From positions 2,432-66,431 of the forward strand of contig CALRZI010000015.1 in assembly GCA_943372605.1 (NCBI GenBank): a stretch of DNA of 64,000 bases. The letters run 5' to 3'. The notes below the pieces were generated by a model that did not search any database, had not been told where the DNA came from, and saw only the letters and a list, made by a program, of their open reading frames with translations. The translations under genes were made by a program, and so were the position numbers. Of this stretch, positions 897 through 64,000 are shown piece after piece; the first letter of the stretch is position 1, and each line of letters starts with the position of its first letter. This DNA comes from Chitinophaga pinensis. GTDB lineage: Bacteria > Bacteroidota > Bacteroidia > Chitinophagales > Chitinophagaceae.

Positions 897-924
897 ATGT
901 CTGATGTCGGATCTCAGATGTCAG
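897..924 (+). repeat. Heptamer array ATGTCTG-ATGTCGG-ATCTCAG-ATGTCAG
   Basis: Four 7-nt units starting 4 nt after the DUF4197 stop codon. Confidence 0.85.
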
Positions 925-946
925 ATTTGATTTTAATAGTAGTTTT

Positions 947-1009
947 ATTGCCACTGAGGACACAGAAATACACAGAATCGTTCAGTGTTTCTGTGCCTTC
1001 AGTGGCAAT
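947..1009. terminator. Long imperfect hairpin between convergent genes (probable bidirectional terminator or REP-like element)
   Basis: ATTGCCACTGA (947-957) pairs with TCAGTGGCAAT (999-1009); inner CACAGAAA pairs with TTTCTGTG. Confidence 0.65.
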
Positions 1010-1019
1010 TTAATTTTCT

Positions 1020-3128
1020 TTATGCGAACTGTATATCATCTACAAACGGCATTCGTCTGAAACGCTTTCCTGTTGCAGCGAACAGGGCATTGGCCAATGC
1101 TGGTGCAATTGGCGGCAATCCTGGTTCACCCAATCCAGTCGGGTTTTCTTCAGAAGGCACGAATGCTACTTCCACATCCAATGGTGTACTGCGCATTTTC
1201 ACAAAATTATAAGAGCCGAAATTGGTTTGTACCGCCGCACCATCTTTGAAAGTAAGTTTGGTAAACATAGCATGACCAAGTCCATCTACTACCGCACCCT
1301 GCACCTGATTTTCTGCGCCACTCAGGTTCACTACTTTTCCGCAATGCACGGCGCAATACACTTTGGTTATTTTGGGCTTGCCATTTTCCATCTTTAATTC
1401 TACCACCTGTGCCACATAACTATTAAAGGAAAACCATGTTGAAAATCCACGGTATGTATTGGGTGATGACTTACCCCAGTTACTGATTTTAGCAACCAGT
1501 TCTATAACACTGATAAATTTATCAGCATCATAGGCCAACCTGCCGACGGGTTGTTCCTTGGCTTTCTTCAGTAACTCAAGACGTAATGCTACCGGATCTT
1601 TTTTCAGTTCTGTTGCCACTTCATCCATAAAACATTCATTGGCAAATGCCTGCACATTATGTGTTGGTGCGCGCCATGGGCCAGTGGGAATATTGGTGGG
1701 TAAGCTATGGCTTTCTATGCGCAGGTTTTTCAAAGCACCGGCCGGATAGGTATCCGGACTTCTTCCATTACTTAAACAGACAAATGACTGGTGCCAGGCT
1801 TCCAGGTTACCATCTTTGATCGCTGCTTTAAAACGAAACATTCCGCTGGCACGATAAAAATCATTCTGCATATCATCTTCACGCGTCCACTGCACCTGTA
1901 CCGGACATTGTGCTGCCTGAGAAATCAATGCTGCTTCTATTCCGTTATCGGGTCTTAATTTTCTTCCGAATCCTCCACCCTGTCTGGGTAATCCGAGGGT
2001 TACATTTGCCACAGGAATATTCAGTTCTCTTGCTACTGATGTTACTAGGTTTTGCGGCACTTGTGTTGGTCCATACAACTCAGCTTTTCCGTCGCGTACA
2101 TCTGCATAAAAATTCAGGGGTTCCATTTGTGCGTGAGATAATACAGGCACTTCATAATATACATCGAGCAGTTTGGTTGCTGCTGACATCGCCGCGTCTA
2201 CATCTCCATCATTACGATTGGGTGTGGCTGCCGGTTTACTCAATAATTCCTTAAATACTTTTTTATGATCGGTGGTACTTTCCAACTTCGATGCATCTTC
2301 CCAATTTATTTTCAATGCCGCTCTTCCTTTGATGGCGGACCATGTTGATGTTGCAAGAACAGCTACGCTGCTTTTAACCTGTACTACTTTTTTCACACCT
2401 GTTACTTTCAAAGCAGCGCTATCATCAAACGACTGTAATTTTTTCCCATGTGCCGGTGGTCGTGCCACTACTGCGAATAACATTCCTTCTCTTCTTGTAT
2501 CAATTCCAAAAAGTGGTTTTCCTGTTACAATAGCTTGCGCATCTACATCTTTTACACGTGTTCCGATGATTGTAAACTCTTTCGGATCTTTTAAAGGAAT
2601 ATTGGCAGGCACAGGCATGGAAGCCGCTTTGGTAGCCAATTCACCGAAAGCTATTTTCTTACCAGATGTTTTATTCACTACAAAACCATTCTCTGCATAA
2701 CAGTCGGCAGCAGCAACACCCCAGGTATCGGCTGCTGCTGCAATTAATAATACCCTCGCCGTAGCACCTGCTTGTCGGAGCGGTGTATAACGACTCCTGA
2801 TAGCACCACTTCCGCCAGTTGTCTGGCTGCCATATTTAGCATCCAATGGTGCAATTTCTACCTGAATTTTTTTCCAATCCACATTCATTTCTTCTGCAAT
2901 CAGCATTACCAATGATGTTTTTACGCCCTGACCAATTTCAGGATTGGGCGACATCATTGTAATAGTGCCATCAGGTGAAATTTTGATATAGGCATTTGGT
3001 GAAAATGGCGTTCCATCTAATTCCTGTTTTTCATCATTACCCAATGTTGAAAAACCGACCAGCATACCACCACCGGCAATCATGCTGACCCTCAGAAAGT
3101 TTCTTCTTGATACTGATGGTGTACTCAT
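1020..3128 (-). CDS. Xanthine oxidase family molybdopterin-binding subunit (IorB-like), paralog 1
   Basis: N-terminal SRRNFL twin-arginine motif; EIGQG, TGGS, GGGFGRK and C-terminal GLGEPGLPP..ALANA motifs. Confidence 0.92.
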   Translation of the reverse strand: MSTPSVSRRNFLRVSMIAGGGMLVGFSTLGNDEKQELDGTPFSPNAYIKISPDGTITMMSPNPEIGQGVKTSLVMLIAEEMNVDWKKIQVEIAPLDAKYGSQTTGGSGAIRSRYTPLRQAGATARVLLIAAAADTWGVAAADCYAENGFVVNKTSGKKIAFGELATKAASMPVPANIPLKDPKEFTIIGTRVKDVDAQAIVTGKPLFGIDTRREGMLFAVVARPPAHGKKLQSFDDSAALKVTGVKKVVQVKSSVAVLATSTWSAIKGRAALKINWEDASKLESTTDHKKVFKELLSKPAATPNRNDGDVDAAMSAATKLLDVYYEVPVLSHAQMEPLNFYADVRDGKAELYGPTQVPQNLVTSVARELNIPVANVTLGLPRQGGGFGRKLRPDNGIEAALISQAAQCPVQVQWTREDDMQNDFYRASGMFRFKAAIKDGNLEAWHQSFVCLSNGRSPDTYPAGALKNLRIESHSLPTNIPTGPWRAPTHNVQAFANECFMDEVATELKKDPVALRLELLKKAKEQPVGRLAYDADKFISVIELVAKISNWGKSSPNTYRGFSTWFSFNSYVAQVVELKMENGKPKITKVYCAVHCGKVVNLSGAENQVQGAVVDGLGHAMFTKLTFKDGAAVQTNFGSYNFVKMRSTPLDVEVAFVPSEENPTGLGEPGLPPIAPALANALFAATGKRFRRMPFVDDIQFA

Positions 3129-9417: not shown

Positions 9418-10002
9418 TTATTGTTTAATCAATCGCTCATAATCTTCTTCTGTATCAATATCAATAGCTCCAAGCGGAAAGTTAACCAATCCAACCCGAT
9501 GCTGGTCTTTATTTAACAACTGTCTTGCGCCTTTATCACCTTTCAGCTCCAGTAATTCCGGAAACAAGCTCCGATGAAACAATACGGGAGTTCCTATTGT
9601 ATCGGCGTAGGTACAGGCAATAACCGGTTGATTTGTTTTTTGATGAGCAACTATCATCTCGTTAAACAGATCAACAGAAACATAAGGCTGGTCACACACG
9701 GCAATGATCACTGTTTCTACCCGTGGAAATTCAGTTTGCAATCGTTTAATTCCGGCATGAATAGATGTTGCCATGCCTTCCTGCCAATGATGATTAATAA
9801 CTGTTACAATATTCTCCGTCTCCTTTAAATTATCTTCCTTATTCAACACAACCAGAATAGGTCCTGTTTTCAAATTAGTTGCAGTAGTAATAATGCGCTT
9901 GAGCAATGTCTGGTTATGAAACAACAACTGTTGTTTGGGCTTGCCAAGTCGCTTCGATGCTCCGGCGGCCAATATCAAAACAGCAGTTTCTTTAGTTTGC
10001 AT
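9418..10002 (-). CDS. mocA: Molybdenum cofactor cytidylyltransferase-like NTP transferase
   Basis: ILAAGASKRLG.PKQ, GMATSI, CDQP, GDKGAR, DIDTEEDY motifs; next to xdhC. Confidence 0.8.
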   Translation of the reverse strand: MQTKETAVLILAAGASKRLGKPKQQLLFHNQTLLKRIITTATNLKTGPILVVLNKEDNLKETENIVTVINHHWQEGMATSIHAGIKRLQTEFPRVETVIIAVCDQPYVSVDLFNEMIVAHQKTNQPVIACTYADTIGTPVLFHRSLFPELLELKGDKGARQLLNKDQHRVGLVNFPLGAIDIDTEEDYERLIKQ

Positions 10003-15009: not shown

Positions 15010-15028
15010 GGTTATTATTCATTCAAAT

Positions 15029-15056
15029 CAGACATCTGCCATCAGACATCCCACAT
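15029..15056 (-). repeat. Heptamer array ATGTGGG-ATGTCTG-ATGGCAG-ATGTCTG (minus strand)
   Basis: Four units starting 3 nt after the lpdA stop; same family as 897-924. Confidence 0.85.
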
Positions 15057-15059: not shown

Positions 15060-16466
15060 TTAGATATCTATCGCTTCTCCATAAGCCGCAGCTGTTGCTT
15101 CTTTCAGCGCCTCACTCATGGTTGGGTGCGGGTGAACAGCATTGAGGATTTCATGAGCAGTGGTTTCCAGTTTACGGGCCACTACCGCTTCGGCAATCAT
15201 TTCAGTTACATTGTAACCGATCATATGACAGCCCAAGAACTCCCCATATTTTGCATCATAGATTACTTTTACAAAACCTTCGGTTGCACCTACGGCAGTT
15301 GCTTTACCACTGGCCACAAACGGTAGTTTACCTACTTTGATTTCGTAGCCTGCTTCTTTTGCAGCTTTCTCCGTATAACCTACGCTTGAAATTTCAGGTG
15401 TACAATAGGTACAACCTGGAATATTATTATAATCAATAGCTTCCGGTAAATGATGGTGTTTCTTTTCCAGATAGGCCATATGTTCTGCCGCATTAATACC
15501 TTCTTTTGAAGCTACGTGAGCGAGTGCCTGACCGGGAGAACAGTCTCCAATGGCATAGATACCCGGAACAGAAGTTTGTTGAAATTTATCAACAACAATT
15601 TTTCCTTTTTCTGTTTTGATGCCGTTTTCCTCCAGTCCAATATTTTCAATATTTGCTACCACTCCTACTGCGCTTAATACTACTTCAGCTTCCAGAGTTA
15701 CGATTGATCCATCCTGTTTTTTCACCTGCGCTTTTACACCGGTACCACTAGTATCGAGTGATTCAACAGATGCATTGGTCATAATTTCAATACCCTGCTT
15801 TTTATAATTCTTTTCCAGTTCTTTTGAAATATCTTCATCTTCTACCGGAACAATACGTGGCATAAATTCTACGATGGTTACTTTGGTTCCCATACTGTTG
15901 TATACATAAGCAAACTCCACACCTATCGCACCACTTCCTACGATGATCATGCTTTTTGGTTGCTCTGGCAACACCATGGCTTCGCGATAACCGATTACTT
16001 TTTTACCGTCCTGTTTCAGGTTAGGTAATTCGCGGCTGCGACCACCGGTTGCAATGACGATATATTTGGCTTCCAGCACCTGTTTGCTTCCATCAGCAGC
16101 AGTTACTTCTACTTTTCCTTTTGATTGTACTTTTCCGTACCCCATGATCACATCAATCTTATTCTTTTTCATGAGGAACTGTACACCCTTATTCATTTTC
16201 TCAGCGGCTCCACGGCTGAATTTAATCACACCGGGAAAATCATGTGTACCTGTGGCATTAATACCATATTTGGCACTGTGTTTTACATATTCATATACCT
16301 GTGCACTTTTCAGTAATGCCTTGGTAGGGATACAACCCCAGTTCAGACAAACACCACCCAGACTTTCTTTTTCAATGATTGCCACTTTAAAACCAAGCTG
16401 TGAAGCACGAATAGCAGCCGGATAACCTCCAGGACCACTACCAATAACGATTAAGTCGTATGCCAT
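15060..16466 (-). CDS. lpdA: Dihydrolipoyl dehydrogenase
   Basis: GSGPGGY, GGVCLNWGCIPTK redox disulfide, HPHPTMSE motifs. Confidence 0.96.
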   Translation of the reverse strand: MAYDLIVIGSGPGGYPAAIRASQLGFKVAIIEKESLGGVCLNWGCIPTKALLKSAQVYEYVKHSAKYGINATGTHDFPGVIKFSRGAAEKMNKGVQFLMKKNKIDVIMGYGKVQSKGKVEVTAADGSKQVLEAKYIVIATGGRSRELPNLKQDGKKVIGYREAMVLPEQPKSMIIVGSGAIGVEFAYVYNSMGTKVTIVEFMPRIVPVEDEDISKELEKNYKKQGIEIMTNASVESLDTSGTGVKAQVKKQDGSIVTLEAEVVLSAVGVVANIENIGLEENGIKTEKGKIVVDKFQQTSVPGIYAIGDCSPGQALAHVASKEGINAAEHMAYLEKKHHHLPEAIDYNNIPGCTYCTPEISSVGYTEKAAKEAGYEIKVGKLPFVASGKATAVGATEGFVKVIYDAKYGEFLGCHMIGYNVTEMIAEAVVARKLETTAHEILNAVHPHPTMSEALKEATAAAYGEAIDI

Positions 16467-16520: not shown

Positions 16521-16649
16521 AAGTGAAAAGTGAAAGGTGAAAACGTGAAAGGTGAGACGTGAAACGTGAGATGATAGGAATAATGCTACTGATAAGGCTA
16601 AAACAACAATCAAAATGCCCAATCTCTTTTCACCTTTCACTTTTCACTT
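16521..16649. repeat. Inverted pair of A(A/G/C)GTGA(A/G) heptamer arrays
   Basis: Seven units on plus (16521-16570) and three units on minus (16629-16649), the latter directly after the DUF62 stop. Confidence 0.85.
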
Positions 16650-17471
16650 TTATCCTTCAAAAAACACCCTCACCGTCTGGTAAAACCAACTAGTATCGAC
16701 TGATGAGGTTTTCTGGAGTTCTTCGTTAAAGCCCTGGAGACCAAAGAGACCGGCCATATTGCCGTTTCGGAGTGCTATTTCGAGGTATCCTGCCGAGTTA
16801 AACCAGGCCAGTTTTTCTGTTTCAGGAACAGAGGCATAGCTATTGCTGATGGTTTCTATGACTTCATTTCGTTTGAACACAATTTTAAAGCCCCGGCCTC
16901 TCCGATGCTCGTTGAATTCAGTTTCTGTTATATTAATGACCACATTTTCAAACTGATCGATAAACAATATCTGCCCCTCAATCCAATCGGGGCCTACGGT
17001 GGGGCGCAATGGATATTTTTCATCAATGGCATCAACAGCTTGTCCAACACTATTCAACTGCCCCGTTTTGGATACCGTATTGACAGCCACTGCAACAGCA
17101 GATGTGATTTGCAACAGGTTATGAGCATTATTTAAAGTAATGGCAACAATTTCTTTTGGCCGTTCACCAGTAATCATGGTAAGCAATCCGTTATCGGCAC
17201 AAACAATGAATTGCTGTTGATACCTTGCCATCAGCAGGTATTTTATGGGCGATTCATACAGATTGGCAATTACCACATGGAAAGTACCGGATGGATAATG
17301 TTTAAAAGCATTGGCGCAGATATAAGACGCCTGTGGAAAGTTGGTCTGTGGCAGGTAATGCGTAATATCACACAAATTAATAGTAGGGTCCAGTTGCAGG
17401 AACTGTCCTTTGATAGCGCCAACAAGAAAATCGCGCTGGCCTATATCAGTTGTCAACGTTACAATGGGCAT
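16650..17471 (-). CDS. DUF62 / SAM hydroxide adenosyltransferase (fluorinase/chlorinase) family protein, divergent
   Basis: TLTTDIG, DITH, ADNGLL, IDQFENV, GYLEIA motifs. Confidence 0.8.
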   Translation of the reverse strand: MPIVTLTTDIGQRDFLVGAIKGQFLQLDPTINLCDITHYLPQTNFPQASYICANAFKHYPSGTFHVVIANLYESPIKYLLMARYQQQFIVCADNGLLTMITGERPKEIVAITLNNAHNLLQITSAVAVAVNTVSKTGQLNSVGQAVDAIDEKYPLRPTVGPDWIEGQILFIDQFENVVINITETEFNEHRRGRGFKIVFKRNEVIETISNSYASVPETEKLAWFNSAGYLEIALRNGNMAGLFGLQGFNEELQKTSSVDTSWFYQTVRVFFEG

Positions 17472-26267: not shown

Positions 26268-26278
26268 GAAAACAGAGG

Positions 26279-26383
26279 AATAAGGAATATGAAATAAGGA
26301 ATCAGGAAGGAGTTTTATAATTTATACTTTCCCCTGTTTTCGCTACTTTCTTATTCCTTATTTCGTATTCCTTATTTCTTATT
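26279..26383. repeat. Inverted pair of AATAAGG-family heptamer arrays
   Basis: Four units on plus (26279-26306); five complementary units (26349-26383) ending 6 nt before the next start. Confidence 0.85.
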
Positions 26384-26389
26384 TACTCC

Positions 26390-28707: not shown

Positions 28708-28743
28708 TTTAGGGCGGGAAAGTACAGAAATAAATGTTTGATT

Positions 28744-28801
28744 TTTTGATCTTTGATTTTTTCACCTTTCACCTTTCTCTTTTCACTTTTCACTATATTT
28801 G
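28744..28801 (+). promoter_or_regulatory. Pyrimidine-rich heptamer array directly joined to a -7 box (TATATTTG)
   Basis: TTTTGAT, CTTTGAT, TTTTCAC, CTTTCAC, CTTTCTC, TTTTCAC, TTTTCAC then TATATTTG at 28794-28801, 14 nt upstream of ATG 28816. Confidence 0.7.
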
Positions 28802-28815: not shown

Positions 28816-28971
28816 ATGGGATTACCTGTTAATAACAAGAAAGCCGGTAAAGCTGGCGCTGCGGGTTCAAAGAATGCCGCACAGGCTTCTAAATTCATCA
28901 GCAAACCCGGCACCAAAGCCGTAGGCATTGCCAAAAAGCCCATTAAAACGGGTGGATCGAGAGGAAGCTGA
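28816..28971 (+). CDS. 51-aa Lys/Gly/Ala-rich basic small protein
   Basis: ATG at 28816 with its own -7 box; 10 Lys, 1 Arg, no Asp/Glu; the longer track ORF start lies inside the repeat array. Confidence 0.65.
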   Translation: MGLPVNNKKAGKAGAAGSKNAAQASKFISKPGTKAVGIAKKPIKTGGSRGS

Positions 28972-29348: not shown

Positions 29349-29369
29349 AGGGCAAAGATAGTGGTTAGA

Positions 29370-36480: not shown

Positions 36481-36523
36481 ACCTGCCATACTTATGGTAA
36501 TTTGATTTATTTTCGTGTGGTCT

Positions 36524-37108
36524 ATGAAAAAGATAGAATTGGAAATAGTGGCATTGTCGCACAGCATCACCCAAACACATTCCTATGCAGTAGTGTTGGG
36601 AGAAACCAATGGTTTAAGAAGACTCCCGATTGTAATTGGTGGTTTTGAGGCCCAGGCTATTGCCGTGGCCCTCGAACATATGCAACCCAGCCGCCCACTG
36701 ACACATGATCTCATGAAAAATTTCATGAATGCCTTTAATGTAGAATTACAGGAAATCATCATCAGCGATCTACAGGAAGGTATATTCTATTCAAAACTGG
36801 TTTGTTTTACAGAACATGATACAGTAGAAATAGACAGTCGCACCAGCGATGCGCTTGCGCTGGCCGTAAGGTTTGGCTGTCCCATTTATACGTATGAGCA
36901 TATTCTCGAAAATGCAGGTATACTCATGGAAGACGGAGGTAAAAAACAAAAAGCAGAAGCAGTAGGCGCAGAAGACAATAGCACCGGCCGTGAAGACTTA
37001 AGCAGCATGAGTCTGGAAGAACTACAAACCCTCCTCAATGATGTACTGGAACATGAAGACTATATAAGGGCAATTGCAATAAGAGATGAGATGAATAAGA
37101 GGAAGTGA
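36524..37108 (+). CDS. Bifunctional nuclease family protein (BFN/DUF151) with C-terminal UVR domain
   Basis: LPIVIGGFEAQAIA, RPLTHDL, DSRTSDALALAVR, E.EDY..A..IRDE motifs. Confidence 0.88.
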   Translation: MKKIELEIVALSHSITQTHSYAVVLGETNGLRRLPIVIGGFEAQAIAVALEHMQPSRPLTHDLMKNFMNAFNVELQEIIISDLQEGIFYSKLVCFTEHDTVEIDSRTSDALALAVRFGCPIYTYEHILENAGILMEDGGKKQKAEAVGAEDNSTGREDLSSMSLEELQTLLNDVLEHEDYIRAIAIRDEMNKRK

Positions 37109-37114: not shown

Positions 37115-37155
37115 AGCTATGAGCTATGAGCTATGAGCTATGAGCTATGAGCTAT
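37115..37155 (+). repeat. (AGCTATG)x5 perfect heptamer microsatellite plus a partial unit
   Basis: Starts 6 nt after the nuclease stop codon. Confidence 0.9.
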
Positions 37156-37202: not shown

Positions 37203-37237
37203 TTTTGCCTTTTGACTTTTCACTTTTGACCTTTCAC
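37203..37237 (+). repeat. TTTT(G/C)AC heptamer array 2 nt before the ispE start codon
   Basis: TTTTGCC, TTTTGAC, TTTTCAC, TTTTGAC, CTTTCAC, then CT-ATG. Confidence 0.8.
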
Positions 37238-37239
37238 CT

Positions 37240-41300: not shown

Positions 41301-42855
41301 CACACCCGGTGTTGGACTCATTTCTCCACCACCACACCACGATATTTATTCCATTGAAGATTTGGCACAACTGATCTTCGATTTAAAAAATGCCAACCGT
41401 GCAGCACGTATCAATGTAAAACTGGTATCGAAAGCTGGTGTTGGAACCATTGCCGCAGGTGTTGCCAAAGCAAAGGCAGATGTGGTATTAATATCTGGTC
41501 ACGATGGCGGCACAGGCGCCTCTCCCATCAGTTCCATTAAACATGCAGGCTTACCGTGGGAACTCGGATTGGCAGAAACACACCAGACACTTGTAAAAAA
41601 TAAACTGAGGAGCCGTATCGTAGTTCAGGCCGATGGACAAATGAAAACAGGTCGCGATATTGCCATTGCTACTTTACTTGGCGCTGAAGAATGGGGTGTT
41701 GCAACGGCCGCGTTGATTGTAGAAGGATGTATCATGATGCGCAAATGTCATTTGAATACTTGTCCCGTAGGTGTTGCCACCCAGGATCCTGAATTGAGAA
41801 AAAGATTTGCAGGTGATCCTGATCATGTGGTTAACTTTTTCAAATTCATTACACAGGAGCTGAGAGAAATTATGGCTGAGCTCGGTTACAGAACCATTCA
41901 CGAAATGATTGGACAGGTAGATGCGTTGGAAATGAGAGACAATATTTCACACTGGAAATATGAAAAACTAGACCTCTCTGCCGTTTTATATAAAGAACCT
42001 GAATCGTTATACACCGGATTATACAAACAGGAGGAACAGGATCATGGATTAAACGATGTGCTTGACTGGAAACTGTTACAGGCAGCAGCACCTGCACTGG
42101 AAAGAAAAGAACGCATAAGCGCTTCACTCCCTATTAAAAATACAGATAGAACAGCAGGCACTATCCTGTCGAATGAAATCACGAAACGCTATCGTGCAGA
42201 AGGATTACCGGACGACACCATCCATTTCAATTTTACAGGAACTGCCGGACAAAGTTTTGGAGCTTTCAACACAAAAGGTGTTACACTGGAACTGGAAGGC
42301 GATGCCAATGATTATTTCGGTAAAGGATTGAGCGGGGCAAGACTGATTGTGTATCCACATAAGCAGGCCAGTTTTATTCCGGAAGAAAATATCATCATTG
42401 GCAATGTGGCATTGTATGGTGCCACATCGGGCGAAGCATTTATCAGGGGAAAAGCAGGTGAACGTTTTGCGGTAAGAAACTCTGGTGCCAATGTAGTAGT
42501 TGAAGGAGTGGGCGATCATGGCTGTGAATACATGACCGGCGGAAGAGCCATTATACTTGGCGATACCGGTAGAAATTTTGCGGCAGGCATGAGTGGCGGT
42601 ATCGCCTATATCTACAATGTAAGTGGATTATTTACAGAAAGATGCAATAAAGAAATGGTGGAACTCGATCCGCTTGAAGCGAGCGATGCCAGTTTTCTTC
42701 ACGACATGATCACCAAGCACTATGCTTATACAGCAAGCACCGTGGCGAAATTCATTCTGGATGATTTCGAAAACCAGACAAAGAATTTTATCAAAGTGTT
42801 CCCGAGTGATTATAAAAAAGTATTAAAACAGAAAGAGCAAATGGCTTATAGCTAA
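38335..42855 (+). CDS. gltB: Glutamate synthase large subunit
   Basis: HDACGIG N-terminal Cys, [40 protein letters not shown] Fe-S motif, C-terminal GXGXG region. Confidence 0.97.
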
Positions 42856-42875
42856 TGGCTATTAGCTATAAGCCA
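42842..42875. other. Perfect 15-bp inverted repeat overlapping the gltB stop codon
   Basis: TGGCTTATAGCTAAT-GGCT-ATTAGCTATAAGCCA. Confidence 0.85.
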
Positions 42876-44436: not shown

Positions 44437-44611
44437 ATTGTTTTATAAATCAACTACTTATATCTATTTTAGCACATTTATTTCAAGTTAATAATTTAAA
44501 TTAAAAAATATAAAATGTTAATAATTTAGAAAGATTTAATAAAATATTTTAGTATTATTGAATAATAAATATTTATTAAAATATTTTGTAACATTAACCA
44601 AAAACCCAAGC

Positions 44612-46000
44612 ATGAAAAAATTGACCTTCCAGCAGGCAGCCCCTTTTGTTGCTTTGCTAGCAGTTGCGGTTGCTGCTCTTTTTGTTCCCTCCCTCCCCAA
44701 TTTTGCCGATGAAGCAGGCGCTTACAGTGCTGCTGATATTACCTGGATTCTTATTGCCACTGCCCTGGTATTTTTAATGACTCCCGGACTGGCTTTCTTT
44801 TATGGCGGCATGGTGCATCGCAAAAATGTAATCTCTACCATGATCAAAAGTGTGGTAGCAACAGGTGTAGTAAGCATTCTCTGGGTTTTTGTTGGTTACA
44901 GCCTTTGTTTTGGCGAATCGATTGGCGGGTTTATCGGCAATCCCACCACGCACCTGTTCTTTAAAGGCATTAACTCAGGCGCTCCATGGAGTCTGGCCCC
45001 AACCATTCCCATTACCCTATTCGCGCTTTTCCAATTAATGTTTGCCATCATTACACCCGGATTAGTGGTAGGTGCAGTTGCAGAGCGTATCAAATTCACT
45101 TCTTATATTCTTTTTATAGCACTCTTCAGTTTATTGGTATATGCGCCAATAGCGCACTGGACCTGGCATCCAGAGGGTTTTCTGTTTAAAATGGGCGCTC
45201 TTGACTTTGCAGGCGGTACAGTAGTTCATATTTCGGCAGGCTGTGCAGCCTTAGCCGGTGCACTGGTTTTAAAACGCAGACAGACACATATGGAGCAAAA
45301 GGAAATTCCACCCGCTAACCTACCATATGTACTTATCGGCACTGGCTTACTCTGGTTTGGCTGGTTTGGTTTCAACGCTGGATCTGCCGTTGGTGCCGGC
45401 TCTTTAGCCGTTTCTGCTTTTGCCACTACCAATACCGCTGCTGCAGCCGCAGGCTTATCATGGATGTTTTTTGATGTACTCAGAGGCAAAAAACCATCTG
45501 TATTAGGATTCTGTATTGGTGCTGTTGTTGGTCTCGTTGCCATTACACCCGCCGCAGGTTTTGTGGCCATACCACAATCTATTTTCGTTGGCGTTATTGC
45601 GGCCATCGTTTCCAATATTGCCGTGTACTACAAATCAAAATCAAAACTGGATGATACGCTTGATGTATTCCCCTGTCATGGTATCGGTGGTATGGTAGGC
45701 ATGTTACTGACGGGTATTTTTGCTACCAAAACCGTTAACAGCGCTGGAGCCGATGGCCTCTTTTATGGTAATGCCACTTTCTTCTTTACACAGCTAAAAG
45801 CACTGGGCATAGTAGTAGCATACAGTTTCGTGGTTTCTTTTGGCATCTTCAAATTCATCAATTTCATTTTGCCAATGCGTGTAAGCTCTGAAGACGAATT
45901 GCTAGGTCTGGATGCCACCCAGCACAATGAAAAATATGTTCAGGGTACTTTACTGGTAGAAAACAATGGCATACTAAAAGAAAGCGCCATCGCTGAATAA
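44612..46000 (+). CDS. amtB: Ammonium transporter
   Basis: MTPGLAFFYGG, FQLMFAIIT, DFAGGTVVH, LWFGWFGFNAGS, DDTLDVF..HG twin-His motifs; ATG 44612. Confidence 0.95.
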   Translation: MKKLTFQQAAPFVALLAVAVAALFVPSLPNFADEAGAYSAADITWILIATALVFLMTPGLAFFYGGMVHRKNVISTMIKSVVATGVVSILWVFVGYSLCFGESIGGFIGNPTTHLFFKGINSGAPWSLAPTIPITLFALFQLMFAIITPGLVVGAVAERIKFTSYILFIALFSLLVYAPIAHWTWHPEGFLFKMGALDFAGGTVVHISAGCAALAGALVLKRRQTHMEQKEIPPANLPYVLIGTGLLWFGWFGFNAGSAVGAGSLAVSAFATTNTAAAAAGLSWMFFDVLRGKKPSVLGFCIGAVVGLVAITPAAGFVAIPQSIFVGVIAAIVSNIAVYYKSKSKLDDTLDVFPCHGIGGMVGMLLTGIFATKTVNSAGADGLFYGNATFFFTQLKALGIVVAYSFVVSFGIFKFINFILPMRVSSEDELLGLDATQHNEKYVQGTLLVENNGILKESAIAE

Positions 46001-46003: not shown

Positions 46004-46086
46004 TTTAAGAAACAAGGTTCAAGGATACAGGGATCAAGGTTATTGCTGTCTCCTTGTTTCTTGATCCTTGTTTCTTATTCCTTATT
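46004..46086. repeat. Inverted pair of AACAAGG/AATAAGG-family heptamer arrays
   Basis: Purine-rich units at 46004-46039 after the amt stop; complementary CCTTGTT/TCTTATT units at 46052-46086. Confidence 0.8.
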
Positions 46087-46190
46087 TCCTTTTCCATGTT
46101 TCGCATTAAAAAAATAAGGTACAGCCATATGATATACCTCTGACCAGGTTTACCGGCTGTACCTATTTGTTAATCATAAAACCTTCTGCA

Positions 46191-53149: not shown

Positions 53150-55465
53150 TTAAAACTTGAAATTATAGGTAACACTGGGTATCCATTGAAAAAGAGATGT
53201 CTGAACTGCATCAATTTTCTGAGGGTTTGACGCATTCTCTTTAAACGATATACTGTATGGATTGCGGCGACCATATACATTGTATAGTCCAAAACTCCAT
53301 GAACTCTGAACCCGTTTTTTAGAAGGTCGTTCGTAGGTAGCACTAAAATCTAATCGGTGAGTAGCGGGCATCCTATCGCCATTGCGTCTGCCATATTGGT
53401 AAACCACCATATCATTCAACATGTATTTACCTGTAGGATAAGTGACTGCATTTCCGGTAGTATAAATAAAAGTACCCGACAGCGTCCATCTCTTATTCAG
53501 GCTATACACACCTACAACAGACAAATCATGTGTTCTATCCTGTTTGGCATTGTACCATTGTCCATTATTGATTCCGGTTATTTTTCTTTCGGTTTTAGAA
53601 AGCGTATATCCAACCCAACCTGTCAATTTCCCTTTTTTCTTTTTCAACAAAACTTCCAGCCCATAAGCTCTGCCTTTGCCAAAGAGTAATTCGCTTTCAA
53701 TATCCGGAACAGTGTTGATATCAGCTCCATCGCGATAATCAATCTGGTGCTGCATCGACTTGTAATAAGCCTCCACATTCAGTTCGAATGCATTATTGGC
53801 GAGGTTCTTACTATACCCTATACTCACCTGGTCGGCAATCTCCGGTTTAATATTGTAGCTGTTGCCGATCCACTGATCGGTTGGACTACCGCCTGTAGAA
53901 TTACTCATCAGGTGAAGGTTCTGTGTATTACGGGCATAACCAATTTTTACACTTGATGTGTTATTCAACATATAGCTTGCAGAAAAACGAGGTTCCCAAT
54001 TGGCATAGGTTTTTCCTGTTTTTCCTCTGGCGAGGTTTACAGATTGAATAACCTGGTGGTTTTGGTAGATATTATAAGTATCCCCACCTAAAATGTTATA
54101 AAATGAATACCGTAACCCATAGTCGATGCTGATTTTGTCTGAGGCTTTGTAGGCGTTACTTATATACAGCGCATTCTCCAACCCTTCCCTGCTTTTTTTA
54201 GTACTCACAATATCATTCCCCCCTGCTATTGTAGGGGTTATGGTATGTTTAATAATATTTAGACCAAATCGAATGGTATTTTTTGCGTTGGCAAAAAAAG
54301 AGAAGTCCTGTTTCAGGTTCAGGTCCTTGATATGCGAATTAAAGTTCGTTTCACTTCCCCCACTTTTAAAACCTACATTAAAATCATAGTTGCTGTAAAT
54401 AAATGAAGTATTAGAAAACAGTTTATTACTTAATACACTGTTCCATCTTAATGTTCCTGTGGCATTACCCCATTTACTTCCAAATGCTTTCGACACACCC
54501 AATACATCCTGACCAAAATAGCCGGAGAAGTATAGCTTGTTTTTGTTGTTGACAGCCAGATTGGCTTTTACATTGAGATCGTAGAAGTATAAGCTAACCC
54601 CACTCATATCAGGTGATAGCCTTGCCAGCAAGTCCGCATAGGTACGTCTGCCGGAAATGATAAAAGATGATTTTTCTTTTTGAATGGGGCCTTCTAACGT
54701 AAGCCTGCTGCTGATCAATCCAATGCCACCACTAAGCTGGTAATTTTTGTTATTGCCTTCTTTCATTTTTACATCGAGCACAGATGACAGACGACCACCA
54801 AATTGTGCAGGGCTGTTACCTTTAATAATCGTAGCATCTTTAATGGCATCGCTATTGAAGGTGCTGAACATTCCTAACAAATGTGAGGCATTGTAAACAG
54901 GCGCTTCATCGAGAATAATGAGGTTTTGATCGGTGGCACCACCCCGTACGGAAAAGCCATTGCTTCCCTCTCCGGTTGACTTTATACCAGGCAGTAACTG
55001 AATGGTTTTCACCAAATCTTTTTCACCAAATACAACAGGAATTTTAGCCGCCGTTTTCATATTGAGTACTTCTGTACCCATCGTTGCTTTGGTAAGATTA
55101 TCGTTTTCTCTTTTTGAACTTACCACTACTTCCTGCAAGCCAGTTTGATCTGACAGGCTAATGTTTACTGTAATATTGGAAAAGAGTTTAACGGATATCA
55201 ATTCCTGCTGATATCCAACATAAGTAACCCGCAATGTATAACTACCCTGCGAAAGAGAAAGCGAATAAAACCCATATTCATTTGTGGTTACACCAACACC
55301 AGGCTTTTCAACTATCGTTACACTCGCTCCACTAAGTGTTTCACCCGATAGTTTTTGCTTCACCGTTCCGTTGACGGTAAAATTTTGAGTTTGAGAAAAT
55401 AATGGAGATGAAATAAAAATCAGAATACAAAACAATACTTGTTTCATGCATTTGGTACTTGTCAT
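53150..55465 (-). CDS. TonB-dependent receptor with N-terminal carboxypeptidase-regulatory-like domain
   Basis: GTV...GETL.GASV, LQEVVV, VRGGATDQNLI.LD, GGRLSSVLD, terminal SVTYNFKF. Confidence 0.92.
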   Translation of the reverse strand: MTSTKCMKQVLFCILIFISSPLFSQTQNFTVNGTVKQKLSGETLSGASVTIVEKPGVGVTTNEYGFYSLSLSQGSYTLRVTYVGYQQELISVKLFSNITVNISLSDQTGLQEVVVSSKRENDNLTKATMGTEVLNMKTAAKIPVVFGEKDLVKTIQLLPGIKSTGEGSNGFSVRGGATDQNLIILDEAPVYNASHLLGMFSTFNSDAIKDATIIKGNSPAQFGGRLSSVLDVKMKEGNNKNYQLSGGIGLISSRLTLEGPIQKEKSSFIISGRRTYADLLARLSPDMSGVSLYFYDLNVKANLAVNNKNKLYFSGYFGQDVLGVSKAFGSKWGNATGTLRWNSVLSNKLFSNTSFIYSNYDFNVGFKSGGSETNFNSHIKDLNLKQDFSFFANAKNTIRFGLNIIKHTITPTIAGGNDIVSTKKSREGLENALYISNAYKASDKISIDYGLRYSFYNILGGDTYNIYQNHQVIQSVNLARGKTGKTYANWEPRFSASYMLNNTSSVKIGYARNTQNLHLMSNSTGGSPTDQWIGNSYNIKPEIADQVSIGYSKNLANNAFELNVEAYYKSMQHQIDYRDGADINTVPDIESELLFGKGRAYGLEVLLKKKKGKLTGWVGYTLSKTERKITGINNGQWYNAKQDRTHDLSVVGVYSLNKRWTLSGTFIYTTGNAVTYPTGKYMLNDMVVYQYGRRNGDRMPATHRLDFSATYERPSKKRVQSSWSFGLYNVYGRRNPYSISFKENASNPQKIDAVQTSLFQWIPSVTYNFKF

Positions 55466-56595: not shown

Positions 56596-57957
56596 TTAAT
56601 AATATTTCAGTTTCATCACTACTCTTCTGTTCTGTGTACGTCCCGCCGCAGTTTTGTTATCGGATACAGGCTGAGATGAACCAAAACCTTCAGATGTAAG
56701 TCTTGCTCCGTCTATTCCTTTGCTCACAATATAATCATGTACTGCTTTAGCGCGGTTCTGGCTCAACGGAACATTTATTTTATCTGTTCCTGTATTGTCG
56801 GTATGACCTTCAATATCCAGTTTCAGTGCTGCATCTTCTTTCAGAATTGCTACCACTTCATCCAATGCTTTGAATGATTTGGCCTGCAGTTTTGCACTAC
56901 CAGTTACAAAGAATACATTTTTTGCGCTGGCTGCTACTTTCTTCACAATCTCATCTTTCACAGCAGGACAACCATTATTTTCTCTTACACCTGGTATTGT
57001 TGGACATTTATCTTCTTCATCATTCACACCGTCTTTATCGGTATCAGGAACAGGACAACCCTGGTAACGGGCCACACCTGCTACAGTTGGACATTTGTCT
57101 TCTTCATCATTGATACCATCTTTATCGGTATCAGGAATTGGACAACCATCGTATTTAGACAGTCCTTTTACAGTTGGACATTTATCATTTTCATCATTGA
57201 TACCATCACCATCTGTATCAGGAACAGGACAACCGTCGTATTTAGCAGTGCCTGCAACTGTTGGACATTTGTCTTTGCTATCCAGGATACCGTCGCCATC
57301 TGTATCTTTTTCAACAGGAGGCGGTGGTGGTGGTGGTGTAACTACAACCGGCGCCTTTTTATCTGCTAAAGGAGAAGAAAGACCAATTGAATAAGTAAGG
57401 TGGTTTACAGCCAGATTAGAAATAGCTGACCTGTGTACAAACTGGGTATTCAGGAAAGTTTCCTGTCCGAGGTTGAACTGAAGTCCCATACCAGCAGGTG
57501 CATAAGCGGCAAAGTAAGTACCTGTGTACATAGATGCGCCCAATCCGAAACTGAGGTAAGGAACAACAGTGTATTTATCAGTCAGTAACTTAATATTGGC
57601 AGCAGCATCCAGTTCCAACAGGAATTTAGCTGTTGTAGATGGAGTCACTCCACTTTTACGATAGAATGGATATTTTACATAAGAACCTGAAAAAGTTGCC
57701 TGAAAGTCAACATACTCAGTTAAACCATCAAAATACTGAACACTCAACCCTGGGTCCAATTGACTGAATGGAGTCCACTGTTTGTTAGAAATAACTGAAG
57801 AAATAGAACTCCTGCTGATGGCATCAGAGGTGTACATATCCTTTAAAATGAAATTGATACCAAGTGAGGGTCTTTTTTTATAGCTAACTGGCGTGCTTTG
57901 AGCAAATGCAGTCAAAACCAAACCACTGGCTATTAAAGAAAAAAGAAGTTTCTTCAT
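56596..57957 (-). CDS. OmpA family protein with thrombospondin type-3 repeats
   Basis: Signal peptide, N-terminal barrel, Pro-rich linker, four D.D.DG..D..DKCP repeats, C-terminal IEGHTD..LSQNRA..NRRV. Confidence 0.93.
   Translation of the reverse strand: MKKLLFSLIASGLVLTAFAQSTPVSYKKRPSLGINFILKDMYTSDAISRSSISSVISNKQWTPFSQLDPGLSVQYFDGLTEYVDFQATFSGSYVKYPFYRKSGVTPSTTAKFLLELDAAANIKLLTDKYTVVPYLSFGLGASMYTGTYFAAYAPAGMGLQFNLGQETFLNTQFVHRSAISNLAVNHLTYSIGLSSPLADKKAPVVVTPPPPPPPVEKDTDGDGILDSKDKCPTVAGTAKYDGCPVPDTDGDGINDENDKCPTVKGLSKYDGCPIPDTDKDGINDEEDKCPTVAGVARYQGCPVPDTDKDGVNDEEDKCPTIPGVRENNGCPAVKDEIVKKVAASAKNVFFVTGSAKLQAKSFKALDEVVAILKEDAALKLDIEGHTDNTGTDKINVPLSQNRAKAVHDYIVSKGIDGARLTSEGFGSSQPVSDNKTAAGRTQNRRVVMKLKYY
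56965..57306 (-). repeat. Four 29-aa (87-nt period) TSP3-like coding repeats
   Basis: DTDGDGILDSKDKCP..GCP and three variants. Confidence 0.85.
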
Positions 57958-57980
57958 AAACAGGTTTTTATTTATTGTCA

Positions 57981-57988
57981 CAAAAATA
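57981..57988 (-). promoter_or_regulatory. Candidate -7 element (TATTTTTG) of ompA
   Basis: TAnnTTTG match 23 nt upstream of ATG 57957. Confidence 0.55.
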
Positions 57989-60459: not shown

Positions 60460-60463
60460 AATA

Positions 60464-60505
60464 TTGGTTTTTGGAGTTAGGGGTTAGCTTTTAGGGGGTT
60501 GGGGT
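60464..60505 (-). repeat. Degenerate ACCCC(T/A)A heptamer array overlapping the aroA 3' end
   Basis: Minus strand ACCCCAA CCCCCTA AAAGCTA ACCCCTA ACTCCAA AAACCAA. Confidence 0.55.
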
Positions 60506-61774
60506 TATTGAGAGGTTGGCTCCTAGCTGTTTCAGGTGACCATAAAAATCGGGGTATGATTTGTTGATGGCTTCTGCTTCTTCTATCGTTACTGATCCAT
60601 TGGCTTTTAATGCAGCTACGGCACAAGCCATGGCTATCCGGTGATCGTGTCGGGAATGTACGGTTGCTCCCTGCACACCTGTTCCTCCTTTTACCAGCAT
60701 CAGATCGTCCTGCAACACAATTTCAATACCCAATTTAGCAAACTCCTCTTGTAAAGTAAGTCCCCTGTCACTTTCTTTATGCGATAACCGGCTAACGCCT
60801 TCTATAACGGTTGTTCCTTCACAATAAGCAGCCAATGCCACCAATGGAGGAAAAAGATCCGGGCAATCGGTCGCATTAAAATGAAATGCCTTTAAGGGCA
60901 ATGGCGATACTTCTATCTGTTTTTCCTGTACCGATAAACTGCATCCACAGTCTATCAGTGCCTGAAGAATGGCTTTATCGGCCTGGGTAGAGAATACATC
61001 CAGTCCGGTTACCGTTATTCCTCCAGCAATGGCACCTGCCACCAACAGGAATGCAGCCCCGCTCCAGTCTCCTTCTACCTGGTAGGTTAAACCACCCGGC
61101 GTTGTACGGCCAACACTACCATGAAAACTAAATTGCTCATAATTGGTATGCGATACTTTCCAGCCAAAGTCTTCCAGCACTTTTAACGTGAGGTCGATAT
61201 AGGGTTTGCTTTTGAGGTCCTTCACCGTAATGGTAACACCATTTGCATCAGAAGCGGCAAATGCCATCAGTAGACCGGTTAAAAACTGTGAGCTCAATGA
61301 CCCATCTACTTCTATGGGAGAAGGTTTTAATGGACCCTGTATCTGCAAAGGCAGTTTTCCTTCGTTTGATTGAATGGATACACCTAATTGCGGCAGTATC
61401 TCATCAAAAAAATGCATGGGTCTTGTTACGAGGCTTCCTGTTCCGTTAATAGTTAACTGCTCTGCACTCAGCGCAACAATGGGTGTAAACATACGGATAC
61501 CAAGACCGCTTTCTCCACAATTGATTTCTTTATTTACAGGCTTTACACCATTGGAACTAATCACCAGATCGCCGTTCTCCTCAAATCGTATAACTGCTCC
61601 GAGTTTTTGAATAACATCTAATGCAGCCCTGTCATCATTGCTGTTTCCCGGGTTTACAATCAAGGTTTCTCCCCCACGCAATAATGCTGCAGCACAGGCT
61701 CTTTGCATACTGCTTTTACCTGCCGCTGCCCTGATGGTTCCTTGTATGGTTGATGGCTGTATCCTTACCTGCAT
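60491..61774 (-). CDS. aroA: 3-phosphoshikimate 1-carboxyvinyltransferase
   Basis: GKSS..RA, CGESG...R, SSQFLTGLL, DCPDL, KESDR, DHRIAM, KSYP motifs; ATG 61774 preferred. Confidence 0.95.
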   Translation of the reverse strand: MQVRIQPSTIQGTIRAAAGKSSMQRACAAALLRGGETLIVNPGNSNDDRAALDVIQKLGAVIRFEENGDLVISSNGVKPVNKEINCGESGLGIRMFTPIVALSAEQLTINGTGSLVTRPMHFFDEILPQLGVSIQSNEGKLPLQIQGPLKPSPIEVDGSLSSQFLTGLLMAFAASDANGVTITVKDLKSKPYIDLTLKVLEDFGWKVSHTNYEQFSFHGSVGRTTPGGLTYQVEGDWSGAAFLLVAGAIAGGITVTGLDVFSTQADKAILQALIDCGCSLSVQEKQIEVSPLPLKAFHFNATDCPDLFPPLVALAAYCEGTTVIEGVSRLSHKESDRGLTLQEEFAKLGIEIVLQDDLMLVKGGTGVQGATVHSRHDHRIAMACAVAALKANGSVTIEEAEAINKSYPDFYGHLKQLGANLSITPTP

Positions 61775-61817
61775 AACAAACGATCTATGGCTGCTCATTT
61801 ATGGCAGCAACAATTCA

Positions 61818-62837: not shown

Positions 62838-62862
62838 ACGCTATTGCATCAATCGCGACAGG

Positions 62863-63948
62863 TTAGGAATTCATGATCTTATTCTGGTGATTGATACTTT
62901 CCATATGCACTGCATCAAAATATTTGGTGATGAACTCCTTGCTCAATCCCATTTTATCTCCTTTTGCAAAAGCTCTGTCGAGAATAGCATTCCAGCGATT
63001 GGTTTGCAGGATGGTGATATTATTGTCTTTTTTGTACTGCCCAATTTTATCGGCCACTTTCATTCTTTGTCCAAGCAGTTGCAACAGTTCATCATCGAGC
63101 TGGTTAATCTGCTGACGCATTTTTTCCATAGCTGCATGCAGTTCTTCTGAACTGATGTCTTCTTTACGCCAGATGATGGAACCAATCATTTCACCCAAAC
63201 GTTCAGGTGTTACCTGCTGTTTAGCATCGCTCCAGGCATTATCCGGATCAATATGACTTTCAATGATTAAACCATCAAAGTCGAGGTCAATGGCTTTTTG
63301 TGCAACGTCCAACAGAATATCTCTTCTTCCACAGATATGCGACGGATCATTGATCAATAACATTCCGGGATTGCGTCTTTTCATTTCAATCGCCAGGTGC
63401 CACATTGGTGCATTACGGTATTCTGTATTACCATAAGAACTGAAACCACGATGTATTAACCCGATATCTTCAATACCAGATTTTGCCACACGCTCTACTG
63501 CACCAATCCATAATTCCAGATCTGGATTAATAGGATTCTTGATTAATACAGGAACTTTCACACCTTTCAATGCATCGGCTACTTCCTGCACGCTAAAGGG
63601 GTTAACCGTAGTACGCGCACCGATCCATAAAACATCCACATCAAAATGCAGTGCATCTTCTACCTGCTTTCCGGTGGCTACTTCTACGGCTACTGGTAAT
63701 CCTGATGCTTTGCGGGCCTGTTGTAACCAGGGTAAACCTTTGGTTCCAATGCCTTCAAAACTACCTGGCCTTGTACGTGGTTTCCAGATACCGGCACGCA
63801 GCATATCTACTTTACCGGTAGCTGCCAAACGGGTAGCTGTTTCAATAACCTGTTCCTCAGTCTCTGCACTGCATGGTCCTGAGATAATGAGCGGACGCTT
63901 CTGTAACAAAGCCTCTACGCCTGTTTTCTGTTCGATTGCTTGCTCCAT
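62863..63948 (-). CDS. Bifunctional DAHP synthase / chorismate mutase (Bacteroidota type)
   Basis: ISGPCSAE, WKPRTRP.SFEG, KNPINPD, DPSHICG, C-terminal MRQQINQLD..R chorismate mutase helix. Confidence 0.92.
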   Translation of the reverse strand: MEQAIEQKTGVEALLQKRPLIISGPCSAETEEQVIETATRLAATGKVDMLRAGIWKPRTRPGSFEGIGTKGLPWLQQARKASGLPVAVEVATGKQVEDALHFDVDVLWIGARTTVNPFSVQEVADALKGVKVPVLIKNPINPDLELWIGAVERVAKSGIEDIGLIHRGFSSYGNTEYRNAPMWHLAIEMKRRNPGMLLINDPSHICGRRDILLDVAQKAIDLDFDGLIIESHIDPDNAWSDAKQQVTPERLGEMIGSIIWRKEDISSEELHAAMEKMRQQINQLDDELLQLLGQRMKVADKIGQYKKDNNITILQTNRWNAILDRAFAKGDKMGLSKEFITKYFDAVHMESINHQNKIMNS

Positions 63949-63970
63949 AAATTAAAATGTATGATTTCTA

Positions 63971-64000
63971 ATGTCTGATGTCGGATGTTAGATGTCGGAT
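63971..64000 (+). repeat. Heptamer array ATGTCTG-ATGTCGG-ATGTTAG-ATGTCGG (may continue past the window edge)
   Basis: Differs from 897-924 at 3 of 28 positions; lies upstream of the DAHP synthase start in antisense orientation. Confidence 0.85.

Follow-up and report, generated by a model that had tools for sequence, protein, structure and literature searches.

Intergenic heptamer hairpins of a Chitinophaga pinensis genome as probable gene-less copies of intervening-sequence-type elements

Which process places short tandem arrays of seven-nucleotide words between so many genes of one bacterial genome, and what might the arrays do there? The question is raised by a 64,000-nucleotide stretch of Chitinophaga pinensis DNA (contig CALRZI010000015.1; hereafter the window), which corresponds to C15:2432-66431 of a 3.92-Mb genome of 27 contigs and 40.6% GC (called G000). 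A first reading from the letters of the window (the sequence-only reading) had counted at least 13 intergenic heptamer sites; at least 14 were confirmed by Tandem Repeats Finder (TRF) together with inspection of the sequence. Catalogues of bacterial heptanucleotide repeats go back to 1990, yet neither the function nor the origin of the repeats has an agreed explanation. Cyanobacterial heptamers of the short tandemly repeated repetitive (STRR) class were reportedly described by Mazel in 1990, and we know of no established function of STRRs and of no cognate gene described for them. The S23p protein family, which includes the protein Avd of diversity-generating retroelements (DGRs), is large, structurally solved and functionally orphan outside DGRs. 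We propose, with moderate confidence, that the arrays of the window are gene-less copies of hairpin elements of the type found as intervening sequences (IVSs) in 23S rRNA, and that they probably serve as hairpins at RNA 3' ends or for RNase III, which a cognate ring protein would read.

Inverted arrays around PF05635 genes

Arrays were collected genome-wide with TRF at a score of ≥40 and ≥3 copies, thresholds that cut short arrays down, and genes were taken from our own caller based on open reading frames (ORFs), which gave 3133 genes (87.6% coding) with approximate start coordinates. The genome has five genes of PF05635, the family named after the 23S rRNA IVS protein (S23p), and all five lie between inverted arrays, each pair built from a different major word (Table 1). 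Among the other genes about 5 of 3128 are flanked in this manner (Fisher p = 1e-13); these other cargo genes, among them a MIP channel and ribosomal protein L16, proved to be ordinary genes between neighbouring hairpins. The arms of the gene-bearing copies are 17-40 nt long with a period of 7 or 8. All five products belong to TIGR02436 ('four helix bundle protein') and match PDB 2GSC (Xanthomonas XCC0516; E = 1.8e-20). The five words of these genes cover 506 of the 773 arrays in the genome (65%). For TAGTSAR, AAGTCCGR, CCATRGW, AAGTCAA and GAATGGT, which account for 121 further arrays, a PF05635 gene with matching arms is present in the sister genomes G001-G004, and the same holds for TAACCCC and GCTAACA. 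The sequence-only reading had suggested a dedicated generating process or a repeat-reading protein behind the arrays; the tie of each word to one PF05635 gene with same-word flanks fits that idea.

The architecture resembles that of ORF-bearing 23S rRNA IVSs. In Coxiella burnetii the IVS forms a 28-bp terminal stem, in which RNase III cuts, and carries an S23p ORF in its loop, next to which stand tandem GACAGAT heptamers of strain-variable copy number (PMC4990558). With the IVSs of Coxiella burnetii and Leptospira (PMC4990558) the present elements share the PF05635/S23p ORF in the hairpin loop, the inverted-repeat stem of ~28 bp and the tandem heptamers in the arm; in each of the five gene-bearing copies a PF05635 ORF lies in the loop of a terminal inverted-repeat stem made of tandem heptamers. 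They differ from IVSs in location, since the five gene-bearing copies, like every array of the window, have protein-coding genes on either side, and none is in a 23S rRNA helix. They also differ in number, with five gene-bearing copies, five words and hundreds of gene-less copies, and in that cleavage of the stem has been shown for the IVS whereas the present stems are known from sequence. Because they are gene-less, the window arrays are derivatives rather than full members of the IVS type. The S23p protein of Xanthomonas is described as a homopentameric toroid (Lin et al., 2006, as cited in PMC4990558). PF05635 is homologous to Avd (PMC10053308); no PF00078 match was found anywhere in the genome, which is thus without a reverse transcriptase, so the five proteins are not DGR Avd and a DGR or retroelement origin was rejected.

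The association extends to other genera. Gene-bearing copies with arms number 44 across the relatives, most of which are metagenome-assembled genomes (MAGs). By its urocanase locus the genome falls in Chitinophagaceae, with uncultured Sediminibacterium-like MAGs as the closest relatives. Inverted arms, of period 7 in most, nearly always flanked the best-scoring PF05635 gene when 30 further genomes of Chitinophagaceae were examined; in Sediminibacterium ginsengisoli the sampled locus is array-free and the one PF05635 gene has no arms. When array richness was judged from one ~20-kb locus per genome, genomes with array-rich loci had a mean of 8.1 PF05635 genes as against 4.7 for those with array-free loci (p = 0.001). 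The protein tree contains word-sharing clades that cross genomes (TAAGTTA in five genomes, AGCTNN in four, AGTTG in four), and protein similarity correlates with arm similarity to a degree reached in 0 of 500 permutations. PF05635 genes with the same word are syntenic across genera at loci where the flanking proteins are just 60-80% identical. This synteny marks the gene-bearing copies as old, vertically inherited loci, and the retention of the word over a divergence that erases neutral DNA indicates constraint on the word itself and not just on pairing. In Pinibacter and Longitalea the dispersed arrays match the PF05635 arms of their own genome, all seven matches of ≥0.6 being same-genome matches. 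With this correspondence between word and paralogue seen in other genera, and the word conserved at syntenic loci, the function of the heptamers and that of the S23p family become directly testable in cultured Chitinophagaceae such as Pinibacter aurantiacus and Longitalea luteola. A motif, CCGTAYAATTAC / GGTAAATTAC, occurs between the arm and the start of three PF05635 genes (C1:91644-91754, C10:148951-149047 and C19:35200-35270) and may be a promoter or common regulatory site of these genes.

Period, hairpin polarity and position of the arrays

TRF returned 459 arrays of period 7 genome-wide, as against 3 of period 6 and 133 of period 8, with 8 of period 9, 36 of period 11 and 3 of period 12; a third-order Markov shuffle of the genome yielded 0 arrays at every period. 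By these counts the excess of period 7 over periods 6 and 8, which the sequence-only reading had made a test of its proposal, is real. Its statement that the unit is always 7 nt held in part: heptamers dominate, and the octamer families AATTTGAA and AAGTCCGR behave in the same way and are part of the same system. Together the 773 arrays amount to 27.7 kb, or 0.71% of the genome. Their modal length is 4 units, and paired arms have ≤5.5 units in 98% of cases. The heptamers comprise 58 canonical units in ~10 major families. As in the long simple sequence repeats (LSSRs) and STRRs, tandem 7-nt units thus occur in large excess, mainly in intergenic DNA (663 of 773 arrays, 86%, against ~12% non-coding DNA) and in several unrelated unit families.

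An inverted partner lies within 150 nt of 517 of the 773 arrays, which makes ~340 hairpins; their stems have a median length of 27 bp (3.7 units), and most of their loops measure 10-60 nt. The pairing into hairpins noticed at the outset is therefore general, and for the hairpins of the window the folding energies are -29 to -46 kcal/mol (z-scores -6.7 to -7.8). Between co-directional genes the hairpin begins a median of 5 nt past the upstream stop and leaves ~40 nt to the next start; between convergent genes it occupies the whole spacer, with 4-5 nt free on each side. On both strands the arm that is rich in purines, and usually in stops, stands at the 5' side (273 vs 26 hairpins), in every gene context including divergent spacers (24 vs 2), and unpaired arrays obey the same orientation rule. 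Stops in two or three frames are present in the 5' arm of 281 of 339 hairpins and in the 3' arm of 55. Purine-first was rejected as a universal rule; because GATGTCN and TAACCCC, which are not purine-rich, still put the stop-containing strand first, 'stop-rich arm first' is the better rule, to which the stop-free but purine-first word AAGTCCGR is an exception. The two arms of one locus are better complementary to each other than arms of the same family are across loci; in the GTGA family, complementarity of ≥95% was found in 48% of same-locus pairs versus 10% of cross-locus pairs. No relationship was found between the loops of same-family hairpins at different loci.

The arrays prefer the 3' ends of genes over the 5' ends by 2:1, and their number per spacer is highest in convergent and lowest in divergent spacers. 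Of the array/stop pairs, 285 of 739 fall between -20 and +10 nt from the stop, compared with 96 of 724 when arrays are placed at random within the same spacer (odds ratio 4.1, p = 4e-29), and near-stop arrays are purine-rich on the sense strand in 259 versus 52 cases (p = 3e-34). Post-stop position and sense-strand purine richness, both claimed for the window, are thus significant genome-wide. The companion claim, that pyrimidine-rich arrays end just before start codons or promoter boxes, did not carry over: genome-wide, the distance of arrays to start codons is no shorter than under random placement in the same spacer, so that this pattern is an anecdote and no rule, real as its example at 37203-37239 is. 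In ~30% of the arrays that follow a stop, the repeat overlaps the stop codon or provides it. Seeding of the array by the stop of the gene itself was rejected, as the phase of stops in arrays is random unless the array overlaps the stop. For annotation it matters that ~0.7% of the genome, and much of its 3' untranslated sequence, consists of the elements, and that an upstream gene at times takes its stop codon from one.

When all genes were folded, 44% of 3' flanks had a hairpin of ≤ -20 kcal/mol, compared with 7% of shuffled and 17% of coding controls. Among these 951 3' hairpins, 161 are array-based and 660 have no array at all, and the latter begin a median of 4 nt past the stop. Since ~660 non-repeat hairpins sit there too, post-stop position is not specific to arrays; the placement 0-11 nt after the stop, once taken as their hallmark, is real without being theirs alone. 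What is array-specific is the arm polarity, at 133:10 in array hairpins versus 247:183 in non-repeat hairpins. Genome-wide, 3' hairpins have a median of 28 pairs, far more than usual terminators, and in some convergent gene pairs both stops lie within one perfect palindrome, for example TAAAACTAACCCTGCCCGGGATTTAAATCCCGGGCAGGGTTAGTTTTA (G000:C5 ~54620-54668 and C6 ~103750).

Array hairpins have 37% GC and a median of 31 pairs, and just 10% have ≥6 T in a 10-nt tail, which argues against intrinsic terminators with a short GC-rich stem and a U-tract; their place just past stop codons would suit a terminator. Canonical terminators with a GC stem and a T-run are fewer at array-bearing than at array-free 3' ends, both in tandem (7% vs 18%, p = 1.6e-4) and in convergent contexts (12% vs 24%, p = 1.5e-3). 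This depletion fits either functional substitution or insertion where no terminator ever existed, and for the candidate roles in termination, end protection or ribosome recycling that the sequence-only reading put forward it lends indirect support only. An Rfam search of the window matched a tRNA only and no known RNA family at the arrays. The genome contains an rnc (RNase III) gene.

Origin and possible role of the elements

Synteny of the window with relatives is good, and the comparison of orthologous spacers that the sequence-only reading had called for was informative. At the junction between a murQ-like gene and its neighbour, five outgroup genomes (L005/L009/L012/L031/L007) have just 'TAG GATAGTGT ATG', whereas the window and its four closest relatives carry a heptamer hairpin of ~110 nt, with an upstream protein two residues shorter. 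The insertion, at 26268-26389, replaced the last codons and the stop of the murQ-like gene, and no target-site duplication was seen at this single empty/filled comparison. Co-transcription of the two genes is probable, given an ancestral junction of just 8 nt. Of the four closest relatives, L003 has a different word (GAATGAT) at the junction. L001, ~78% identical in coding DNA, keeps the words at several sites: AGCTNNN after 37108, CCATRGW at 29366 and TTTGATTT upstream of hutU. Arrays were found at 40 of 80 Chitinophagaceae loci with quite different words per genus and the same hairpin polarity (34 vs 10).

In the account that we favour, the arrays would be arms or surviving half-arms of genome-wide hairpin elements, with stems mostly of 3-5 units of a 7- or 8-nt word. 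Each word family would have one full-length member, whose loop carries a small PF05635/TIGR02436 four-helix-bundle gene; the hundreds of intergenic copies, those of the window included, lack the gene. The families, at first taken as unrelated, would accordingly consist of gene-less IVS-type copies rather than independent inventions. With the stop-rich arm first on both strands, a gene reading into the element would end at once, and because an inward-reading gene is so terminated, elements could sit at or replace a native stop codon. The stem of 20-35 bp would be co-transcribed with the host mRNA and, by analogy with rRNA IVS stems, may form a 3'-end or intercistronic RNA hairpin that is a terminator substitute, an RNase III substrate or both. 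The cognate ring-forming four-helix-bundle protein is predicted to recognise its own word.

Several observations weigh against this account. The gene calls are crude, and 19% of arrays carry no word with a known PF05635 gene. PF05635 counts overlap largely between array-rich and array-poor genomes, one genome with an array-free locus having 19. The congruence of word and protein across genomes is largely explained by synteny, hence by vertical inheritance, and speaks for constraint on the word rather than for direct recognition, and an ancestral gene junction of 8 nt is an odd place for a terminator to be inserted. Arm mismatches show no excess of G.U over A.C toward the sense transcript (50 vs 55 and 41 vs 52). 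Selection on the sense-strand RNA, looked for as such an excess, was therefore not found, which argues against strong strand-specific selection at the RNA level; taken with the co-variation of the arms, templated arm correction or maintenance at the DNA level fits equally well as RNA selection.

One alternative is that the arrays are ordinary slippage-made heptamer simple sequence repeats (SSRs) of the LSSR/STRR kind, kept where they lengthen terminator hairpins, and that the PF05635 genes are there by chance. Among long prokaryotic SSRs the heptamer is given as the most frequent unit (Mrazek, 2007, as cited in PMC4679880), non-repeat hairpins share the post-stop position, canonical terminators are fewer near arrays, and some arms flank a conventional terminator with GC stem and T-run. 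This explanation is nevertheless quite unlikely given that five of five PF05635 genes are flanked by five different major words, that genes for the orphan words are present in sister genomes, that words are conserved at syntenic PF05635 loci across genera, and that the first-arm polarity is missing from non-repeat hairpins; moreover, independent slippage should give unrelated units, whereas a few words recur at dozens of loci. A selfish mobile element, autonomous or not, of the kind of miniature transposable elements with inverted repeats (MITEs), insertion sequences or REP/RAYT (repetitive extragenic palindromes and their associated transposases), would have a gene-bearing master and gene-less derivatives without host function, with stop-rich arms limiting the harm. 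It would explain the site that is empty in five outgroups and filled in the window clade, the all-frame stops at both outer edges, the ~30% of post-stop arrays that overlap or supply the stop, and the hundreds of gene-less copies per gene-bearing copy, and IVSs have been called selfish in the literature (PMC4990558). We consider it unlikely all the same. A four-helix bundle of ~115 aa is no known transposase, no enzyme is encoded and the genome lacks a reverse transcriptase; the gene-bearing copies are syntenic across genera, and genomes that are ~78% identical in coding DNA still have many gene-less sites and words in common. Classical MITE copies were rejected on the unrelated loops within families and the missing target-site duplication at the one empty/filled site compared, and a RAYT/REP origin on the single Y1 transposase, which has its own GC-rich REPs and no heptamer arrays.

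The arrays might also act as DNA, as binding sites for a protein on double- or single-stranded DNA or as cruciforms in nucleoid organisation, replication or recombination, the RNA hairpin being incidental. The polarity holds alike for both strands and is no different in divergent spacers, which have no 3' end (24:2), unpaired arrays keep the orientation rule, and the arm mismatches lack a G.U bias, all of which such a role would explain; the association with stops and the 2:1 preference for 3' gene ends fit action on the transcript better, canonical terminators are depleted, and IVS stems are RNase III substrates by experiment (PMC4990558), so that we consider such a DNA-level role very unlikely.

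The favoured account, of IVS-type hairpins with a cognate ring protein, can be carried further, to a proposal that we regard as doubtful. Each S23p/IVP paralogue would then be a word-specific, ring-shaped reader of nucleic acid that sets a word-defined regulon, with one protomer of the pentamer per 7-nt unit; arms would almost always have 3-5 units because one protomer binds one unit. Bound to the stop-rich arm, the protein would either open the post-stop hairpin or lock it, and the state of the hairpin would set termination, RNase III processing or mRNA stability, that of its own gene included. The trp RNA-binding attenuation protein (TRAP) is a toroidal homo-oligomer whose 11 subunits read triplets. 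The likeness to it is by analogy only, in that a ring homo-oligomer would meet short RNA words in tandem and its binding would be in competition with a hairpin; the two are not homologous, and the ring here would comprise 5 subunits reading 7-nt words. Were such readers real, heptamer repeats (STRR, Xanthomonas GGGAATC and others) and orphan S23p/Avd-like proteins would be the halves of one undescribed system of post-transcriptional control across many phyla.

REP elements lie within 15 nt of stop codons in E. coli, and RAYT transposase genes are flanked by the same repeat. The present elements are likewise dispersed extragenic palindromes just after stops, in which a dedicated gene, itself set between copies of its repeat, is outnumbered by many gene-less copies; they differ in that the partner gene encodes a four-helix bundle and not a Y1 transposase and that the stems are arrays of tandem words. 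The Xanthomonas GGGAATC and Nostoc GGGGAYT repeats (Rehm et al., 2015; PMC4692102) are also intergenic heptamer arrays. Of the Xanthomonas repeats, 70-75 inverted pairs are able to form stem-loops, and most repeats lie 0-50 bp from a stop on the coding strand and those upstream of genes on the non-coding strand (PMC4692102), the polarity rule found here, where arrays also form inverted pairs and follow closely after stops on the coding strand. These repeats, however, each consist of a single G-rich word capable of G-quadruplex formation, whereas ten or more A/T-rich words are present here, and the units GTGAAAR, AATAAGG, GATGTCN, AGCTNNN and AATTTGAA have no G-runs. Rehm et al. (2015; PMC4692102) drew no link to a protein gene. 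STRRs, prokaryotic LSSRs and the TAACTGA repeats of Beggiatoaceae, cyanobacteria and Bacteroidetes (PMC4679880) are similar as tandem intergenic heptamers with several families per genome and three-frame stops in one orientation; TAACTGA repeats differ in lying mostly just upstream of starts and in being almost never inverted (one indirect vs 169 direct sets; PMC4679880). The heptamer class (STRR, LSSR, TAACTGA, Xanthomonas GGGAATC) and the ORF-bearing IVS with heptamers in its arms were thus already known. New here is the sorting of dispersed heptamer hairpins into word families with one matching S23p-type paralogue apiece; in the literature searched, no paper was found that links S23p/PF05635 genes to dispersed intergenic heptamer hairpins.

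Sites in the window and neighbouring observations

The arrays of the window are listed with the PF05635 genes in Table 1.

Table 1. Heptamer arrays of the window, PF05635 genes of the genome and arrays upstream of hutU. Positions are those of the window unless a contig (C) or relative (L) is named.
Feature	Position	Strand	Evidence
GATGTNN-word array, unpaired, 4.3 units, 4 nt past stop of DUF4197 gene (167-892)	897-926	+	TRF, sequence, Pfam
Short GATGTCT-word array, 9 nt past stop of dihydrolipoyl-dehydrogenase-like gene (15060-16466, minus)	15027-15050	-	TRF score 34, Pfam
GTGAAAR-word hairpin, TRF arrays 16521-16569 and 16626-16651	16521-16651	-	-45.3 kcal/mol, z -6.8
AATAAGG-word hairpin, 33-nt arms, 38-nt loop, between murQ-like stop (26267) and next start (26390)	26276-26384	+	-45.7 kcal/mol, z -7.8
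Unpaired composite array, TTTGATTT octamers then TTTTCAC heptamers	28737-28794	+	TRF (period-7 part 28759-28794)
GATGTNN-word hairpin filling convergent spacer, from small-ORF stop (28971) to stop of 29040-29387 (minus)	28981-29038	.	Sequence reading; -29 kcal/mol, z -6.7
CCATRGW-word arrays (self-complementary word), 5' end of ORF 29040-29387	29366-29445	.	TRF (29366-29396); same word at L001 orthologous site
AAGAGAC array, 10 units, unpaired, 5 nt past stop of SDR gene (34986-35774, minus)	34911-34980	-	TRF
Perfect AGCTATG x5.9, 6 nt past stop of bifunctional-nuclease-domain gene (36515-37108)	37115-37155	+	TRF
Pyrimidine-strand GTGAAAR/GTCAAAA-type array (TTTTGAC/TTTCACC), ending at ATG of GHMP-kinase gene (37240)	37203-37239	+	TRF
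AGCTAAT/GGCTTAT array (period 14) across stop of 1508-aa gene (ends 42855) and spacer before 42903	42836-42868	+	TRF, sequence
AACAAGG/AAGGATA-word hairpin, 5 nt past stop of 44558-46000	46006-46102	+	TRF (46051-46102); -36.2 kcal/mol, z -7.3
Weak degenerate TAACCCC-type run around stop of 60491-61798	60461-60510	-	Sequence
GATGTNN-word hairpin 5' arm; partner arm past window end (window-equivalent 64009-64038)	63971-64000	+	TRF
PF05635 gene, word GAGCTAT (AGCTNNN)	C5:181895		
PF05635 gene, word GTGAAAR	C1:91294		
PF05635 gene, word AATTTGAA	C19:35270		
PF05635 gene, word GATGTCN	C1:60901		
PF05635 gene, word AATAAGG	C10:148565		
hutU-upstream arrays	window 28737-28794; L002, L004, L009, L011, L012, L014, L016, L021, L025, L030, L031, L078 at ~9750-9990		

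The GTGAAAR hairpin, read on the minus strand, adjoins the stop of gene 16650-17471 with its stop-rich arm (16651-16626), and 54 nt separate its pyrimidine arm (16569-16521) from the start of the dihydrolipoyl-dehydrogenase-like gene. TRF resolves the AATAAGG hairpin into the arrays 26276-26308 and 26347-26384. The composite array stands between the urocanase start (28707, minus) and a small ORF. This ORF (28816-28971) encodes a Lys-rich product of 51 aa and has the array plus a TATATTTG box on one side and a GATGTNN hairpin on the other. The word of the AGCTATG array belongs to the family of the arms around the PF05635 gene at G000:C5:181895-182209, and this array and the one ending at the GHMP-kinase gene are unable to pair with each other. 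ACCCCTA, listed as an array family by the sequence-only reading, amounts merely to the weak, degenerate 3-unit run at 60461-60510; for the TAACCCC-type word a cognate PF05635 gene with CTAACYC arms is present in the sister genome G004 (L118).

In many genera of Chitinophagaceae an array stands upstream of the urocanase (hutU) start, at most ~250 nt away, with another word in each, so that the site appears to be conserved while the word turns over.

The REP/RAYT system of the genome is separate from the heptamer words: its single Y1-transposase gene (PF01797, RAYT-like; G000:C5:24063-24407) stands behind several GC-rich REP-like hairpins of the GGGACCCCTACGGGGTG type. A second repeat family, with a period of ~10-11 and CACAGAGT/CACGGAGT (ACTCYGTG) units, is present at 954-1002 of the window and at many sites of the genome; its octamer core ACTCYGTG occurs 356 times in the genome, often as hairpins and often directly beside heptamer arrays. 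Finally, an 87-nt tandem repeat of 3.5 copies, 81% identical, spans 56999-57306 within a 461-aa ORF (56596-57981, minus) and is presumably a repeated protein module.

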